Part shown: positions 3,701 through 11,000 of the stretch, in pieces
Numbering within the stretch: the first letter of the stretch is position 1
How the letters are laid out: every line of letters starts with the position of its first letter
Assembly: GCA_050014195.1 (NCBI GenBank)
Contig: JBEKDT010000001.1
Coordinates: 96,001 to 160,000, forward strand
Source: Desulfomonilia bacterium
GTDB taxonomy: Bacteria; Desulfobacterota; Desulfomonilia; UBA1062
Direction: 5' to 3'
DNA length: 64,000 bases
Made by a program: the position numbers and the translations under genes
The notes under the pieces: model-generated
Databases searched by the model: none
What the model saw: the letters and a program-made list of their open reading frames with translations, nothing else
What the model was told of the DNA's origin: nothing

Positions 3701-4153
3701 GTGACAAAAATCTCAGAAAAAAACGAATTGCGTGTTACAGGAATCTGGGGCTTCGAAAGCAAGTCTAGCCTCAAGATACCCCTCTTCTCTGTAGGCATAT
3801 CTGCTGGATTCCCCTCACCGGCAGAAGACAGCATTGAAAAGAATCTCGACCTCAATGAGTTTCTCATCAAACATCCGTCTGCAACATTCTTTGTCCGAGT
3901 TGCAGGAGATTCGATGACCGGGGCGGGTATTCATACCGGCGATATCCTCATCGTAGACAGAGCTTTGGAACCAAAATCGGGTAATGTGGTGATTGCCATG
4001 GTCAATGGCGACTTTACAGTGAAAAGGTATAACCACATAGATGGCAGATGTTTCCTCCTGGCTGAAAATTCTCAGTTTAAGCCTATCGAGATAACGGACG
4101 GCATGCAGGTGGAGGTGTGGGGAGTCGTTTCTTACGTAATCCACAAGGTGTGA
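3701..4153 (+). CDS. umuD: UmuD/LexA-family S24 peptidase, Pol V accessory subunit
   Basis: SAGFPSPAED cleavage site, GDSM catalytic Ser, FTVKR catalytic Lys, VWGVV. Confidence 0.93.
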   Translation: MTKISEKNELRVTGIWGFESKSSLKIPLFSVGISAGFPSPAEDSIEKNLDLNEFLIKHPSATFFVRVAGDSMTGAGIHTGDILIVDRALEPKSGNVVIAMVNGDFTVKRYNHIDGRCFLLAENSQFKPIEITDGMQVEVWGVVSYVIHKV

Positions 4154-4156
4154 TCA

Positions 4157-5416
4157 ATGGAACAGATCTTTGCTCTGGTAGACTGCAACAACTTTTATGC
4201 ATCCTGCGAACGTGTTTTTAACCCTTCTATTGATGGTAAACCGGTTGTCGTACTTTCAAACAATGATGGGTGTATCATAGCCAGATCAAACGAAGCTAAG
4301 GCATTAGGCATTAAGATGGGAGAACCTCTGCATCAGTGTCAAACTCTCATCGCAAAAAACAAAGTGCACGTCTTTTCATCTAACTTCCCGCTATATGGCG
4401 ATCTGTCTGCCCGTGTAATGGGGACACTTGCTACCTTTACTCCCGAGATGGAGGTCTATTCAATAGATGAGGCTTTTCTAGATCTCACCGGCATTCCTGA
4501 GAACCTCACTGAGTATGGAAGAATTATCAGGAAGACCGTAAAAAGATGGGTCGGCATCCCTGTGTCCATCGGGATAGCTCCCACCAAAACACTTGCTAAG
4601 GCTGCTGCAAAGCTAGTGAAGAAGCGGAGTGAATATCAAGGAGTATTCGATATCACAGACCACATAGAAACCCTCGCCGACATTGATGTGGGAGATGTAT
4701 GGGGGGTTGGTTGGCAGTATACCAAGCTCCTCAGGCGACATGGGATCTTGACTGCGCTGGATTTGAGGAATGCACCTGCTTCCTGGGTTAGAAAGCACAT
4801 GACTGTTGTGGGCCTGCGCATAGTTATGGAGCTTAGAGGTACGTCCTGCATACCCCTTGATGAAGGAGAGCAACCCAAAAAGTCCATTATGTGCTCCAGG
4901 TCCTTTGGCCGTAAGGTCTATACCCTTAATGAGCTTAAGGAAGCTGTATCCGCTTATACATCCAGGGTATCCGAGAAACTGCGTGAACAGAATTCTGCTG
5001 CATCCATCATCCAAGTGATGCTCATCGAGTTTCCATTCAATGATGGGCATCCAAGGACTCATTTCTGCTCTACCACAATTCCTGTTGCCACCTCGTACAC
5101 CCCTGACCTCATACGGTATGCCAAGGCCCTTCTGGAACGTGTATACCGGAAAGGTCCGGCATATAGGAAGGCAGGGGTAATGCTCTCCGGAATATGTCAG
5201 AGAGGACAGGTGCAAATGAACCTTTTCCACACCAGTCGTGAAGGGGAACAAGAGCTAAAACTCATGCAGACCGTGGATGAAGTAAACAGGCGATGGGGCA
5301 GAGGAACTCTCATCCATGCCTCCTCCGGCTTCGCGCGACCGTGGTGGATGAGGCAGACAAGGCGATCTCCCCAATTCACGACATCCTGGACAGATATCCC
5401 GGTTGTAAAGGCTTAA
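4157..5416 (+). CDS. umuC: Y-family DNA polymerase V catalytic subunit
   Basis: DCNNFYASCE, VLSNNDGC, YSIDEAF, C-terminal W-MRQ-RRSP-FTT-W (DUF4113-like). Directly follows umuD. Confidence 0.95.
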   Translation: MEQIFALVDCNNFYASCERVFNPSIDGKPVVVLSNNDGCIIARSNEAKALGIKMGEPLHQCQTLIAKNKVHVFSSNFPLYGDLSARVMGTLATFTPEMEVYSIDEAFLDLTGIPENLTEYGRIIRKTVKRWVGIPVSIGIAPTKTLAKAAAKLVKKRSEYQGVFDITDHIETLADIDVGDVWGVGWQYTKLLRRHGILTALDLRNAPASWVRKHMTVVGLRIVMELRGTSCIPLDEGEQPKKSIMCSRSFGRKVYTLNELKEAVSAYTSRVSEKLREQNSAASIIQVMLIEFPFNDGHPRTHFCSTTIPVATSYTPDLIRYAKALLERVYRKGPAYRKAGVMLSGICQRGQVQMNLFHTSREGEQELKLMQTVDEVNRRWGRGTLIHASSGFARPWWMRQTRRSPQFTTSWTDIPVVKA

Positions 5417-5477
5417 TTCTCTTTCTTCTCGTTCACCTAAATCAATTTTACATACTCAAAGTTAAGGAGGGTATATT

Positions 5478-6254
5478 TCACTTAGTGCTGTCAATGATTG
5501 CTTTTAACAAAGAAACCGACATAGCCACCTGCTTCAAAGCTTCATCCTCGGTAATGATTCTCTTCTGTGCGTAACACTTATTAGCCAAGCCGATTGAGCT
5601 ATTTGCTATCTTTGATATCTCCCTCTTAAGATCATCAATGGATTTGATTTGAATCGGAGTTACCATCTTTTCAAAAGCTCGCTTCTTTTCAGTGCTAAGA
5701 GGTAAGACGGAGTCTAATGCATCATCAAATTCAGCGTGATGTTCTTTGCTCCACTTGCCTATTTCAGTATATACCTTCCCATCACCGGTAGGAGAGCTAT
5801 CATAGGGGAAATTATGAAGAGGTTGAGATAGATCACCGACATAATGGGCTATGTTACCGAGATAATAATCATACTCCCATCCCCTTGACCCTTTCAGCTT
5901 TTTATAAAGCTGCACTATCTCCCAGTATAAGACCCCGGATGAATCGGGAACTCTAATCTTGATTGGTTGTGATCCTGGGGAACCCAATTTTTGATAAGTA
6001 CCTACGGTTATCTGATACCGGTCAATATATTCCGGAGTAACAATGGTATTAGGAGCAGCATCATGCCAGTGATACGGAACTAATAAGGCATATTCTTCAT
6101 TCCTGGAGAGATCAGGGAAACATGCTGTTTCAGGATCTGCAATACCAGCCTCTTGGGCAATAAGTATGTGGGTTATTGATGACCATGCCTGAGCATTAGT
6201 TGAAAGAATGAGTATTGTAAGGATACTTATAATGGCTCTCGATGAATATTTCAT
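5478..6254 (-). CDS. Secreted S1/P1 nuclease / Zn-dependent phospholipase C fold protein
   Basis: Signal peptide ending AQA, then W-x4-H; PD; WH; HYVGDLSQPLH; HAEFD Zn-ligand pattern. Confidence 0.75.
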   Translation of the reverse strand: MKYSSRAIISILTILILSTNAQAWSSITHILIAQEAGIADPETACFPDLSRNEEYALLVPYHWHDAAPNTIVTPEYIDRYQITVGTYQKLGSPGSQPIKIRVPDSSGVLYWEIVQLYKKLKGSRGWEYDYYLGNIAHYVGDLSQPLHNFPYDSSPTGDGKVYTEIGKWSKEHHAEFDDALDSVLPLSTEKKRAFEKMVTPIQIKSIDDLKREISKIANSSIGLANKCYAQKRIITEDEALKQVAMSVSLLKAIIDSTK

Positions 6255-6411
6255 AATTGACCTCACTTTGTTGGCAGTAGGGAATCACAGTTGAAATGTC
6301 ATATGATACTGAAATAATTATATCATATTATTATGGAATAATCCACTTTGAGCTGACCTCCTGGTTGTTCTAACGTATCTGATTGTATGGTGGTGATGTT
6401 TATATGGTGGA

Positions 6412-6440
6412 TTGAGTCCTTTATGATAGTATGCTATTAT
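6412..6440 (+). promoter_or_regulatory. Sigma70-type promoter
   Basis: TTGAGT (6412-6417), 17-bp spacer, extended TGn, TATTAT (6435-6440). Predicted +1 at ~G6447. Confidence 0.65.
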
Positions 6441-6446
6441 TCAATT

Positions 6447-6770
6447 GGGAGGCGTAGCTTCCCCATCACCTTCAGCCTGAAAAGGCGAAAGGAGGCTTCA
6501 CATGAGTAAGCTCATTGCTTACCTAATGATGGGGCGGCGTTCGTTTGTGGCTGAATTCTCGATTTGAAAAACTCCGGACCGTGGTAGCCCAATAGCTATC
6601 GCGATTCCATTCTCATTCTCGACCGGAGTCACAAGGGGCACCTGTCGTTGCGTCGATGACGCAACGAGCCAAGAAGACTAGCGATTGTCCTATCGTCGCG
6701 GTCAGGCCCAGCAGGTGTTACACACCGCTGTCAGAATTCTGATTGCGAACGTGTGTAGCGCCTCCCTTTA
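6447..6770 (+). ncRNA. Putative ~320-nt multi-stem structured RNA of unknown class (contains a 21-codon sORF at 6502-6567)
   Basis: Terminal GGGAGGCG/CGCCTCCC helix followed by T-tract, at least 7 nested helices, a GAAA tetraloop, G-U pairs favouring the + strand, and an upstream promoter. Confidence 0.65.
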
Positions 6771-6878
6771 ATGGATTTCATAGGAGGCGGTTCTCTGTTC
6801 CCTGTAAGAAGTCGAGGAAGTGCTTGTAGTTGCTGTTGAATCTCAGCGGTGTGGAGTATCATATTAGTAATGAAGAGT

Positions 6879-6905
6879 AAAAGTGCAGTATAGTTATTGT
6901 TGAGC
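6879..6905 (+). other. attI-like integron recombination site (copy in ICE)
   Basis: AAAAGTGCAGTATAGTTATTGTTGAGC matches 53459-53481 at 22/23 nt up to the GTT core. Confidence 0.6.
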
Positions 6906-6939
6906 TACTCAATAATCCTATGAAATTAGGTAGAAACTG

Positions 6940-7719
6940 ATGTCAAATGGCAATTTGAGTGCAAACTCACTTTTTCATTTTACAAATACACTAGATAAAT
7001 TACAAAGCATTTTGATCGATGGTTTTTGGCCCAGATACTCTCTTGAGACTTGGGATATTATTATTGATAACCCTATGGAATATGCATTTCCAATGGTTTG
7101 TTTTTGCGATATTCCGTTAACGCAAACAAGAAAACACACAGATCTTTACGGGCAATATGGCATAGGTTTAGATAAACGCTGGGGCATTAGAAAAGGCATC
7201 ACGCCGGTATTATATGCATATAAGGGCTCCAGAACCACTGCTCTGCTTGCAGCAATATATGATGATATGATTAATAAAGATAAATTAGTTCCTTTGGATG
7301 AGAAACTTCACAAAGATTTTATGGATTTTATTATGTTCACAAAGCCATATAGTGGCCCTATATGGCGTGATGGCAACTATATCCCTGGCGAAATAAGGTT
7401 TTACGATGAAAGAGAGTGGCGCTATATTCCAGACATTATAATGACAGAAGGAATAAGTTTATTATACGTGAATAATGCTATCTATAAACATGAATTTTTG
7501 AATGATCAATATCGAGAGAGCCAAGAAAAATTGCTACAACCTTATAATCTTGTCTTTTTTCCAGAGGATATCCGTTACATTATAGTTAGCAGCGAAGCCG
7601 AGATGTTATCTCTTTTTACTTTTCTTGATAGTGAATTGACACATAAATATAATGAGTTAGATTTGCAACTTCTTAAAACGAAAATTATTTCGGTTGAACA
7701 AATTGTTTCAGACTTTTAA
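6940..7719 (+). CDS. Abortive infection AbiGi-like protein
   Basis: LFHFT...L-SIL--GF-PRYS-E, PMVCFCDIPL, YGQYGIGL-K-WG, FYDEREWRY are typical of the AbiGi family. Confidence 0.8.
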   Translation: MSNGNLSANSLFHFTNTLDKLQSILIDGFWPRYSLETWDIIIDNPMEYAFPMVCFCDIPLTQTRKHTDLYGQYGIGLDKRWGIRKGITPVLYAYKGSRTTALLAAIYDDMINKDKLVPLDEKLHKDFMDFIMFTKPYSGPIWRDGNYIPGEIRFYDEREWRYIPDIIMTEGISLLYVNNAIYKHEFLNDQYRESQEKLLQPYNLVFFPEDIRYIIVSSEAEMLSLFTFLDSELTHKYNELDLQLLKTKIISVEQIVSDF

Positions 7720-8091
7720 TTAAATACATTAACTGTGATTTAATACAAATGGTCGTCAACAAAGGCATTCTCTCTAATTCAAAAAGTTGGCGCTTTTGTC
7801 TAGATAATGCCCGTCATTCAGCAGAGGCAGAGGAGTAATAATGTTTTCATCGAAAATGGTTTTGAGTTTTCCGTGTGAAGGGGGGATGTTTTATCTTCTT
7901 AATCAACACCTTTCCTGTCCGATGATCCCGTGACACATCTCCATTCCAAGTTAATAAGACCATTTACAGAGATTTGTTTCTCAGAACAGTTAGTAGAGAT
8001 CTTCGAATGAAACCTTCAAAATTGGTAAATAGTTGCTGATGGTAGGTTCAAAGAGATGAAAAAGAAAAGTGATATCTGATATCCAAATTAA

Positions 8092-11000
8092 TTATACTGG
8101 TGGTTTTTGAAAATTAATCCCAAAAACACGTAAGTCTTTATTATAATTCTGATGCTTTACCTCAGCGTCAGCGATCTTTTCAAGATGATGTACAAGTTCA
8201 TCATATGACAATCTCATGTTACTTTTATCATCGACCCAATGTTGTTTGTTGCCTTTACCTATATATCCCAAGACATAAACACCAAAGTTTGAATCTGGTG
8301 CTCGAAGATACTTTCCAAGCAATTGATCTATTAATCCTTTATTAAGTTGATCTAGAGACCAATTTTCTGCCCATTTAATTTCTATGGATACAGGTCCCAT
8401 ACCTGGAGCCTCGATGCGTAAATCAGGTTGTTGTTCTAAATCTATTTCCTCTTCTTGAGTTACAGTATAACGACCTCTTGATTTATTACGAAGTTGTCTT
8501 GCTAACCAACTTCGCAATACTGATTCCTCATCATCAATGTGTAGATCATAACGAGAACTAATGTCACCTCGCTCCACCTCGTCTTTGATAGAGAAAAATC
8601 TTTTACATGCTATTTTAAAAAGCTCATAATCTGATTGAGGAGATACCTCGTGTTCATGCATAAAATCCTGAATGTCTTTAGGTTGCCATGGTATTAATTC
8701 GGATGATAGTTCGATCCTCTTTTCGATAAGGTGAAAAATATAATCACGGTAAATGCTAAAAATCGGATCTCCCAGAAATGAACGCAACACATTATCCACT
8801 TCGGGATCTGATAAACGAGAAAACCGTTCAATTAGACTATTTCTAAAATCTTGAGCATGATCACGTGACGTGAGAGTGTATACACCTCCATTTGTTCTAT
8901 CAAGATCATCTTCAAATCTTATATAATGAAATACCATCGGTATGAATTCTTGTAAAAATTCAGTCTTTAAATAATCTGGGTTTTCAATCAAAGGATAACT
9001 TAATTTTGAATGTGTGCTTAGCCCATTACAGATTTCTATAATAAGGTTGGAAGGTTCTTGTATTTGAGTGAGTATATTCTTTAAGGTTGTAATTGCAGAA
9101 ACTGAATCGAGTTGGATCCACACTATCATCCAAAGAACAAATCGAGGGTCATTAATCTGATAATTAGCTATACGTTGAGAAGCAAGGGTACTTAGGGGCA
9201 GTCGTGGAGGATCAGATAGTCTCAAGAGAATAAAGATAGCTGTTTCTAAAACATCGTAATGTGGGGGGTCATTAATCTGTAGGTTTTTTAATATATCAAC
9301 TGCTACTAAAGATCCCACACCTCCCGTATCATATTTTAAAGAACTTAATACCTGATTAAAATGTTCATGATCAGCTGGGATCAGCCACTCTCCATGTATA
9401 CATTCATTTAACACGGCCCGTACAATATCTGGATGATATTTGGCTAGCTCTAGCAACCAATCTGAGAAGCCATTGAGCTCATTCAGTGCATACCTACATG
9501 CAAGATCTGCCTCTGTAGGAGTTATGATACTGAAGTCTAGACTTCCATCAGCTAACGAACTCTTAATACCGCTCAAGCCAATAATGACACGATAATCTGT
9601 TCTATTTGTATTTGCTTTTTCATGAGGTAATGGAGGTTTCCATTGATGCCAAACAACTTTCCATCCAGTGATGGCAGCTCGTGCAATAAGGCCACCTCTT
9701 TTTCTTATTAGTATATGCGCACTATCTGCCCCAAATTGATTCATATTTTCAGTTGCTTCGATAGCAAGTCTATAGAGAGCAAAAATAGCTGTTCCATTAC
9801 GTAGGTTTTGATGGTTCCAGTAAAGCCACATTTTATCGCGTAACTTCGAATAACATTGTCTAATCATATTTTTTGAATTTCTGACTATTTGCTCTATGCT
9901 GTAGATTTTGTGGCGATAGAAAAAAAATCTGATCTTATTTGATATCTTAATGGTAGATTCTTTTTTAAATAGGCGGACAAGCTCATGATCGCACTTGATC
10001 GCACTTTTAAATAATTTCCGAACAGAGCGCTTCCTTCCTGACTGTAGCCATAGATAAACTGCAATTTCCAGAGCAATGTTTTTAATTTCTTGCGAAGAAC
10101 CTTCTTGAATATCTTTAATGAGCCATTCTATATCAGCCTCCCGCAGTTGGACCATATCAAAGTGGTACAAAACTAAAGACGGTGATAGTTCATCAGCTGG
10201 TTTTGTATGATTCATTTGGTTGATACATTCCCACACATAGGCACGCCGCACAGTAGGATGTTTATCAAGAAGAGTATTGAAATTGCCAGATAGATCACGA
10301 TCAAGTTTGCCACACTTCTGAAAAATGCCAAGTAACCAAAGAGCTCTTGCAGCTATACCCATATCATGGTCATCTAGTTGTTGCCAGTGCAGAAGACTAA
10401 TTAGGACCACGGGTATCACTTCGCCAAGCCAATAAAACTGTTCAGAGATAGGAGTTTCTTTATTAGCATAATGAAGATGTGGGGTTTTTTGAGCAAGATC
10501 TATCAACACCTGTAACATTTCTGAAGCTTGTTTGATCGGAAGATGGTCCTGTAGGTGCTTTTTAAGATACCATGGCAGATCAACAAATCGGCTTGCTACT
10601 CTCTCAGCCTTGCATAGAAGAGTGGATAACCCCTTAGGGTCTAAAACATAAGGATAGATTGTCTCACAGATTAATGAACATAAGTGGGTCTCAAACGTAT
10701 TATACTTATTCGCTATTTCTGCCAGTTTTTCTCGTGCATTTTGATCTCCTATATCCCGGATAGCAGCAACCGCATAAGATTTTAGTGTACCAGGTTCATC
10801 TGGCGAATCGACTATGTCTAAGACGACATCGAGGCAATCCAAGAGTTTTCCATGTCGAATCATTTGGATGAGCATGATTCTTATTTCTAGTGGGTTTGTC
10901 CGCTCTCTCAACATAGTTGAGAGCTGGGGAGCCATTTTTTGATCAGCCATGCGGCTTAAAGCTTCGTCTTCTGTGTCTACATATATCCGCTCTCGTCCAC

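Follow-up and report, generated by a model that had tools for sequence, protein, structure and literature searches.

We find that the 64,000-nucleotide (nt) stretch analyzed here (the window; positions 96,001 to 160,000 of contig JBEKDT010000001.1 from a Desulfomonilia bacterium) carries on its + strand an element of ~320 nt that belongs, with high confidence, to a conserved family of structured RNAs with clamped ends. We rate this family as new and outside the known kinds of RNA. The element is a single-copy, horizontally mobile RNA gene that encloses a conserved miniature open reading frame (mini-ORF) with its own Shine-Dalgarno (SD) sequence. As to function, we tentatively propose that it may be a translationally locked mini-ORF RNA, comparable to type I toxin mRNAs, which would serve as a self-contained addiction or defence module.

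The predicted fold of the element is considerably more stable than that of its shuffled controls. The + strand of 6447-6770 has a minimum free energy (MFE) of -139.2 kcal/mol, compared with -102.1 +/- 5.5 kcal/mol for dinucleotide shuffles (n = 100; z = -6.79), none of which (0/100) is equally stable; the - strand of the same stretch gives z = -3.86. The family alignment identifies the folded strand as the + strand, since G.U cells (126) exceed A.C cells (39) among 1277. GC content is 0.52-0.54 within the element, 0.33-0.40 in its flanks, and 0.50 in the host genome overall. An earlier sequence-only reading of 6412-6770, which describes the letters there correctly, had proposed a large, previously uncatalogued multi-helix RNA on the + strand, pointing to G-U pairs and to a GC content above that of the flanks, and had named shuffled controls, Rfam, and covariation as checks. 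These proposals are borne out by the values above and by the Rfam and covariation results below.

Searches for known RNAs gave no family to which the element could be assigned. Rfam 15 yields no match at the gathering threshold in the whole window, an E-value search of 6250-6950 returns only two chance-level matches (14 bits; E = 3.3 and 6), and Rfam finds nothing on the element in 13 homologous loci. As the sequence-only reading had supposed, ARAGORN detects no tRNA or transfer-messenger RNA (tmRNA) gene in 5400-8200, and a reverse transcriptase domain is absent from 9 window proteins and from 30 flanking proteins of other loci. Full-text literature searches gave no description of the element, the supplementary motif lists of PMC5737381 lying outside them.

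The family includes 28 further distinct homologues, which come from Thermodesulfobacteriota, Nitrospirota, and sediment or peat metagenomes. The host genome holds a single copy, and none was found in the 60 relatives at genus, family, or class level that were searched. Across 400 other genomes of the phylum, BLAST gave three real partial matches (L002, L003, and L004; ~50-60 nt each, 83-85% identity, around window 6487-6547), and five short matches (L005-L009; 20-27 nt) were set aside. A search pattern derived from four sequences (the window, L002, L003, and L004) was then run over sequence collections. Among species-representative genomes it found 14 stretches: 10 family members, three of them the BLAST matches, and four unrelated sequences (L010, L012, L015, and L020). 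Metagenome contigs gave 28 stretches, all with family features, two of which, L027 included, are the window's own DNA. The pattern scan of viral contigs gave no match, nor did BLASTN of the element against plasmid and phage collections.

Independently of the pattern, BLAST with a Nitrospirota member across 400 genomes of that phylum showed that three further genomes carry the element, and its frequency in the genomes sampled from the two phyla is 3/400 and 4/400. Of the named members, those in Thermodesulfobacteriota belong to Desulfobacteraceae, Desulfobacterium sp. N47, Syntrophaceae, Syntrophorhabdales, and ORM2a; the others belong to Nitrospirota. A profile of 19 homologues, from which the window was excluded, matches the window element with E = 1.5e-28, the sole match in the 4.2-Mb genome. 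Two subtypes can be distinguished: type A, with the window and most members, and type B (L003, L018, L023, L036, L042, and L048), which departs from type A in the P3 domain and P5.

A conserved RNA structure is strongly supported by covariation, which was measured on the alignment of 19 homologues using an RNAalifold consensus, with 3' partners slid by 1-3 columns and 500 shuffles as controls. The consensus contains 69 pairs in nine helices. Paired cells make up 87.2% of the total versus 41-50% in the slid controls, 37 pairs have changes on both sides versus 18-26, and the covariation score is 0.337 versus ~0.10; none of the 500 shuffles reaches any observed measure. P2 shows C-G to G-C and U-A changes, and double changes occur at 5 of 8 pairs in P3 and 5 of 7 pairs in P5 in the family alignment. 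In the end clamp, P1, seven of eight pairs are invariant as GGGAGGCG/CGCCUCCC in all 19 homologues, the outermost G-C being G-U in two. P1 also extends outward by 12-16 more covarying pairs in 15 of 22 rows, giving a duplex of 20-25 base pairs (bp).

Type-A members additionally show a long-range contact, in which the loop of the P3-domain hairpin is complementary to the P5 loop and both change together. When all hairpin loops of each unconstrained MFE structure were compared, these two loops proved the most complementary for 14 of the 19 type-A sequences and yielded at least eight different sequence pairs (GUCA/UGAC, UAGUC/GACUA, UAGCC/GGCUA, GUGGCU/AGCCAC, UGGUC/GACCA, AGAAG/CUUCU, UGGCU/AGCCA, UCAUCA/UGAUGA, and UGUCCA/UGGACA). 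L016 (7 nt) and L049 (8 nt) also show the contact, in aligned columns. The pair is not seen in the window copy, where GAATTCT/AGAATTC may be its equivalent.

The MFE structure of the window element reproduces the family arrangement exactly, P3 and P5 included. Among the nested helices listed by the sequence-only reading, P1, P2, P2a, P2b, and GCACCTG/CAGGTGT stand in both the MFE structure and the homologues, whereas CGTTCG/CGAACG and GAATTCT/AGAATTC are unsupported as nested helices because enforcing them costs 8.8 kcal/mol (-130.4 versus -139.2 kcal/mol). ACTCCGG/CCGGAGT is a candidate alternative to part of P3 in the window. The helix CGTGGTAGC/GCTATCGCG (6580-6588/6595-6603) and a perfect hairpin (6645-6654/6658-6667) are both in the MFE structure as window-only insertions. 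The perfect hairpin (6645-6667) and another one enlarge the P4 loop of the window, compared with a short P4 hairpin (CACCC...GGGUG) in homologues, and it is because of these two extra hairpins that the window element measures 320 nt rather than the 245-275 nt seen elsewhere.

A further GGAGGCG lies at 6783-6789 (+), 17 nt past the element, and could pair with CGCCTCC of the P1 3' strand; the resulting alternative hairpin with the 3' clamp strand was detected in an inverted-repeat scan. Codons 11-13 of the mini-ORF are also GGAGGCG in about half of the homologues. It is conceivable that the 3' clamp strand switches between alternative partners.

Within this fold lies the mini-ORF (Table 1), which the sequence-only reading missed in taking the RNA to be non-coding. 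The SD and AUG are placed in the junction between P2a and P2b. The spacer between them is 5-8 nt in all 20 sequences compared, and the AUG, which was absent from the search pattern, stands one base before hairpin P2b in all 26 distinct rows. The mini-ORF has 17-21 codons and the family peptide consensus MSKLxAYLMMGRRSFxxxx; of the 29 distinct peptide versions (the window's included), 10 are exactly 19 amino acids (aa) long, and past residue ~15 the versions diverge in sequence and in length (17 to 94 aa). In L055 and L056, which were found by BLAST and are thus pattern-free, the peptides (MSKLLAQFMMRRRSFENDG and MKKILSYLMMRRRSFEF, respectively) are written in different codons (e.g., AGC for AGT and AAA for AAG), and the hairpin over codons 2-7 has been rebuilt in a new sequence and register (GAGCAA/UUGCUC in L055, GGUAUGAAA/UUUCGUACC in L056) with the peptide kept. 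L016 carries a 12-nt insertion that preserves the frame. An A-rich run usually follows directly after the stop (window 6565-6572 and homologues: UGAAAAAC, UAAAAAC, and UAAAAAG), and the conserved feature there is either the stop position or the A-rich junction itself.

A search of the peptide profile against 1.84 billion protein representatives gave eight matches at E <= 0.001, two of which are repeat proteins and six of which are short family ORFs or miscalled upstream extensions; no larger protein with the peptide motif was found there. A word-indexed protein search for which the 79-aa ORF of L023 served as query recovered nothing but that ORF. Pfam matches none of the peptides, and the only two NCBIfam matches, both with that same ORF, fall far short of the cut-off (E = 0.047 and 0.14). 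At the RNA level, the SD is predicted to be mostly paired, its partner being a short upstream pyrimidine tract (CCUU or AUCUC); its chance of being unpaired averages 0.16 in the 20 sequences folded (0.45 in the window), and codons 2-13 are located in P2b, P2, and P3.

These observations bear directly on an unlikely but serious alternative, namely that the RNA is purely non-coding (for example a ribozyme, a scaffold to which a ligand or protein binds, or an RNA that forms oligomers) and that the SD, the AUG, and the “ORF” are structural and untranslated. Such an RNA would account for the complexity of the covarying fold and for the covarying loop-loop contact, which is typical of compact or multimeric non-coding RNAs. 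It would also fit an ORF whose tail and length vary past codon 16 (17 to 94 aa) and whose conserved codons coincide with P2b, P2, and P3. Against it stand the invariant AUG, with a correctly spaced SD in all members, the survival of the peptide through changes of hairpin sequence and register, the frame-keeping insertion of L016, and the stop at codon 20 in 10 of 29 versions.

Table 1. Features of the element and of the genes flanking it (positions in the window)
Feature	Position	Strand	Basis or remark
Promoter-like site: -35 TTGAGT 6412-6417, TG 6432-6433, -10 TATTAT 6435-6440	6412-6440	+	consensus match; predicted +1 ~6447
Whole structured element, ~320 nt	6447-6766	+	MFE fold; profile from 19 homologues
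P1 5' strand, GGGAGGCG, end clamp	6447-6454	+	pairs with 6759-6766; MFE, homologues
P1 3' strand, CGCCTCCC, holds anti-SD-like CCUCC	6759-6766	+	MFE, homologues
P2 three-way junction	6461-6534	+	MFE, homologues
P2, CCCCATCA/TGATGGGG	6461-6468/6527-6534	+	MFE, conserved in homologues
P2a GNRA hairpin, GCCT-GAAA-AGGC	6475-6486	+	MFE, conserved; variable or absent in some members
SD GGAGG, 6 nt upstream of AUG	6491-6495	+	spacer conserved
Mini-ORF, MSKLIAYLMMGRRSFVAEFSI + TGA stop, 21 aa	6502-6567	+	AUG, SD, and peptide conserved
P2b hairpin, GTAAGC 6506-6511/GCTTAC 6517-6522	6506-6522	+	MFE, conserved
P3, 6544-6552/6627-6635, encloses variable domain with hairpin 6580-6603	6544-6635	+	MFE, covariation
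GAATTCT, complementary to AGAATTC 6733-6739 in P5 loop	6553-6559	+	candidate tertiary or alternative pairing
P4, GCACCTG 6638-6644/CAGGTGT 6712-6718	6638-6718	+	MFE, conserved
P5 hairpin, 6720-6725/6751-6756	6720-6756	+	MFE, covariation
S1/P1-nuclease-like gene	5478-6266	-	domain match
AbiGi	6940-7719	+	domain match; 170-nt gap after element

The genomic surroundings of the element differ from copy to copy. In the window, where the element lies in the accessory block of an integrative and conjugative element (ICE), the gene order is MobA/MobL relaxase-helicase, SRAP peptidase, UmuD, UmuC, S1/P1-nuclease-like gene, element, AbiGi, and STAND NTPase. The segment 51-5416 is the backbone of a mobile element that brings its own translesion polymerase: a MobA/MobL relaxase fused to a RecD-like helicase (3.6 kb upstream of the RNA element) comes first, then the SRAP peptidase gene, then umuD-umuC. 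Neighbours elsewhere include MazF, HEPN, a SecB-like protein, Nif11, a D12 methylase, a hydantoinase, DUF4238, a polysaccharide export protein, and proteins without a family; toxin-antitoxin or defence genes (MazF, HEPN, SecB-like, AbiGi, and STAND NTPase) are frequent nearby. Every ORF lying up to 3 kb from the element in the other 28 distinct loci was clustered by all-against-all BLASTP, and the only recurrent neighbours are an IS1595-type transposase (L016, L017, and L040), a P63C protein (L016 and L040), an S1/P1-like nuclease (window and L024; 32% identity, E = 2e-26), and UmuC (window and L021, the latter 1.7 kb from the element). The two nuclease genes (window 5478-6266, - strand; L024:1778-2356, + strand) differ in position and orientation relative to the element, and their recurrence could reflect chance or a loose functional link.

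Two kinds of mobile context recur. L016:2610-4937 and L040:6330-8573 are diverged IS1595-family transposons, with transposase genes ~69% identical in DNA, whose terminal inverted repeats of 35-36 nt (shared core ACGGAATGTCCCA.ATTAAG) surround the transposase, the P63C gene, and the element, which sits ~20 nt inside one transposon end in both; in L017, an IS1595 transposase ends 10 nt ahead of the element. The second context is that of gene cassettes. Using a crude home-made criterion for attC-like sites (an unbranched 48-150 nt hairpin closed by AAC...GTT), we found that 8 of 27 distinct loci have such a hairpin no more than 150 nt from the element, compared with 2.1 expected from the density in the surrounding 3 kb. 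These hairpins (L013:3339-3399, L032:6920-6991, L042:3-58, L030:681-745, L048:599-665, and others in L044, L051, and L040) are 56-72 nt long, closed by AAC...GTT, with bulged bases, and lie directly before or after the element; several more loci resemble an attC context by eye. This pattern suggests that many copies are, or were once, gene cassettes, a context that is not established. No attC-like hairpin flanks the window copy within 4000-9500, where the criterion picks out only an inverted repeat on the - strand (6744-6803), overlapping the 3' clamp of the element. In L049, the element lies between two 81-nt direct repeats (5084-5164 and 5468-5548; 79% identity), each holding the start of a small opposite-strand gene, as if it sat between tandem paralogues.

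The same neighbourhoods make it rather improbable that the element is a cis-acting leader whose regulatory peptide controls a downstream gene (AbiGi in the window) by attenuation or ribosome stalling. Conservation limited to the first ~15 codons is what stalling leader peptides show, the next downstream gene is often on the same strand, and in L018, L021, L038, and L055 a same-strand ORF begins 25-50 nt past the element. However, the downstream genes are mutually unrelated, an attC-like hairpin or a transposon end comes before the next gene in L013, L030, L048, and L040, and the next gene is on the opposite strand in L002, L014, L030, and L034. In addition, the ends are clamped as in a closed module, and a gap of 170 nt separates the element from AbiGi in the window.

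Among known RNAs, close parallels in design are type I toxin mRNAs, of which hok of plasmid R1 has a 5'-3' fold-back lock. The element shares with hok and aapA1 a small ORF with an SD in a structured RNA, 5'-3' long-distance pairing, a sequestered SD, covarying helices, and residence on mobile DNA among toxin-antitoxin or defence genes. A 5'-3' fold-back lock is likewise reported for aapA1 of Helicobacter, also a type I toxin mRNA (PMC6733600). When the features of the class are taken in turn, the element has an ORF of fewer than 60 aa with a ribosome-binding site (21 aa, GGAGG) and, by prediction, an inert fold with a sequestered SD and paired 5' and 3' ends. It lacks a hydrophobic membrane-spanning toxin peptide, because the hydrophobic run of ~9 residues is too short. 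Unlike type I toxin mRNAs, it also has no antisense RNA that we could find, has a tertiary loop-loop contact and the invariant GGGAGGCG/CGCCUCCC clamp, and shows no sequence or Rfam similarity to them. By analogy, then, the element may work like a type I toxin mRNA, and it is not filed as a member.

Other RNAs that combine structure with a short frame offer further parallels. RNAIII/hld, SgrS/SgrT, and SR1/SR1P are dual-function RNAs, chromosomal regulators that base-pair with targets. They too are structured, measure a few hundred nt, and encode a peptide of <50 aa, whereas the element is single-copy mobile cargo with clamped ends and without a known target. tmRNA shares a size of 250-430 nt, paired 5' and 3' ends, and an internal short frame followed by helices or pseudoknots, but the element has neither a tRNA-like domain nor a CCA end, and its frame has its own SD and AUG. 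Integron cassettes that carry a promoter and no ORF have reportedly been observed, and some copies of the element likewise lie between attC-like hairpins. In contrast to non-protein cassettes and motifs, the element does not recur from one intergenic region to the next, none of the Rfam models of such motifs matches it, and it also occurs in IS1595-type transposons and in an ICE. One such candidate structured motif in integron cassette arrays is the DUF1874 motif (PMC5737381).

A further parallel amounts to an explanation of its own. CreT, of the CreTA system, is a small structured RNA toxin beside CRISPR-Cas with an SD-preceded mini-ORF, Arg codons, and rare codons, and an RNA of this kind would itself be the effector, its strongly initiated mini-ORF trapping ribosomes or a particular tRNA. 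The element has in common with CreT a mini-ORF with an SD and Arg codons (consecutive at positions 12-13) in a structured body, as well as its location in mobile or defence DNA, and CreT is itself a selfish or guard module. We consider this explanation quite improbable: CreT is much shorter, the Arg codons concerned are not rare in the host (CGG 19% and AGG 27%), the SD is mostly paired, and no cas domains were seen among the neighbour proteins of the window and the other loci.

We judge it very improbable that the element has its role in transfer or recombination, as a structure formed by single-stranded DNA (ssDNA), whether a single-strand origin or a site resembling oriT or attC that belongs to the ICE, integron, or insertion sequence (IS). 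The carriers do pass through ssDNA stages, a MobA/MobL relaxase-helicase lies upstream, and covariation alone, according to PMC5737381, does not separate RNA from ssDNA. This role leaves the SD, the AUG, and the peptide conservation unexplained, as well as the G.U excess on the ORF-bearing strand, and the element is far larger than attC, was not seen repeated along arrays, and has no match in plasmid or phage collections. There is hardly any case for a miniature inverted-repeat transposable element or IS remnant in which a transposase gene has been lost and the “ORF” is what is left of its start. It might be suggested by the terminal inverted repeats of 20-25 bp, the varied locations, and the nearby IS1595 transposases in three loci, but there is one copy per genome, the interior helices covary, variation and covariation fall on the tips and spare the inner 8 bp (at transposase-bound ends the reverse holds), the N-terminus recurs in no protein, whatever its length, and the L016/L040 transposon has its own different terminal repeats. 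Equally implausible is the proposal of the sequence-only reading that the RNA is a component or antitoxin of a system with AbiGi, which rests on the same-strand position 170 nt upstream of that gene in the window; no AbiGi homologue occurs within 3 kb in any of the 28 other distinct loci, where neighbours have diverse Pfam matches, and because neighbourhoods change between attC-like hairpins, IS1595-type transposons, and an ICE accessory block, we regard the element as self-contained, with no AbiGi partner.

The ends of the element were also considered with respect to transcription. The promoter of the sequence-only reading (TTGAGT-17-TATTAT with TG) is present and matches the consensus at 9 of 12 positions. 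However, a scan of the 2.8-kb region gave 17 such sites versus 10.7 +/- 3.1 expected, so the site is a mere consensus match that proves nothing alone. Intrinsic terminators are likewise not significant (two in the region versus 1.9 expected, one of them on the - strand at 6592-6574). In the window, the predicted +1 coincides with the end of the closing helix, which in 15 of 22 rows is 12-16 bp longer on its outer side. The identical copies L004, L046, and L050 have no 5' clamp strand and no P2 5' strand; a near-consensus promoter (TTGACA-17-TGAAAAT) replaces the lost strands, and the flanks bear GGGACAATCC motifs, like the IS1595-type ends of L016 and L040.

Returning to the translationally locked mini-ORF RNA that we tentatively favour, its mechanism could be as follows. 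The fold would keep the mini-ORF locked, with the SD half-paired to the pyrimidine tract, codons 2-13 held in P2b, P2, and P3, and the ends clamped. Release of the peptide, or of its translation, would require the fold to be opened or processed, in the manner of hok and AapA1. In most homologues, the extended 20-25 bp clamp might allow excision from a read-through transcript, e.g., by RNase III, while the window copy, which has no clamp extension, would instead use the promoter-like site with its +1 where the helix begins. Because of this lock logic and the residence among toxin-antitoxin or defence genes on mobile DNA, the module might act as addiction or abortive-infection-like cargo that benefits the carrier mobile element.

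Several points weigh against this reading. The peptide, with its ~9-residue hydrophobic run followed by a basic motif and a variable tail, does not look like a typical toxin of the type I class. Many of the conserved ORF codons were fixed by the search pattern, so that unbiased support for the peptide comes from the few BLAST-found members, and the RNA and peptide constraints overlap and are not fully separable. The tertiary contact and the large scaffold exceed what a simple lock needs and fit a ligand- or protein-binding RNA equally well. No - strand promoter-like site recurs at the same alignment column among the 19 homologues in a scan covering the element and 18 nt of flank. Finally, the cassette context leans on the home-made attC criterion, and in the five genomes checked, nothing near the element on its contig passes the curated cut-off for an integron integrase.

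A doubtful extension of the locked mini-ORF is a new class of RNA-only mobile module, in which the 3' scaffold of a clamp-closed RNA with tertiary folding would sense a ligand, protein, or RNase, or a cue from a phage, and gate the 17-21-aa mini-ORF. If true, this would make the element an RNA-only module of ~260-320 nt that travels as integron-type cassette, IS1595 passenger, and ICE cargo, and no other self-contained unit of addiction or defence that is structured to a riboswitch-like degree would be as small.

Large bacterial RNAs with complex covarying folds and no assigned function are rare and have repeatedly led to new biochemistry. The present family is unusual in combining a tertiary-structured scaffold with a conserved, translated-looking mini-ORF wrapped inside it, and also in moving across two phyla, as a unit of 260-320 nt, among integron-like cassette sites, IS1595-type transposons, and an ICE. 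Its shortness makes it a directly testable system with clear mutants (AUG, clamp, and loop-loop pairs). For annotation, the family illustrates that conserved RNA genes can hide in “ORF-less” cassettes and in the intergenic gaps of mobile elements. Should the element prove to be an addiction or defence module, it would be among the most compact known and would extend RNA-gated toxin logic beyond the hydrophobic type I toxins.

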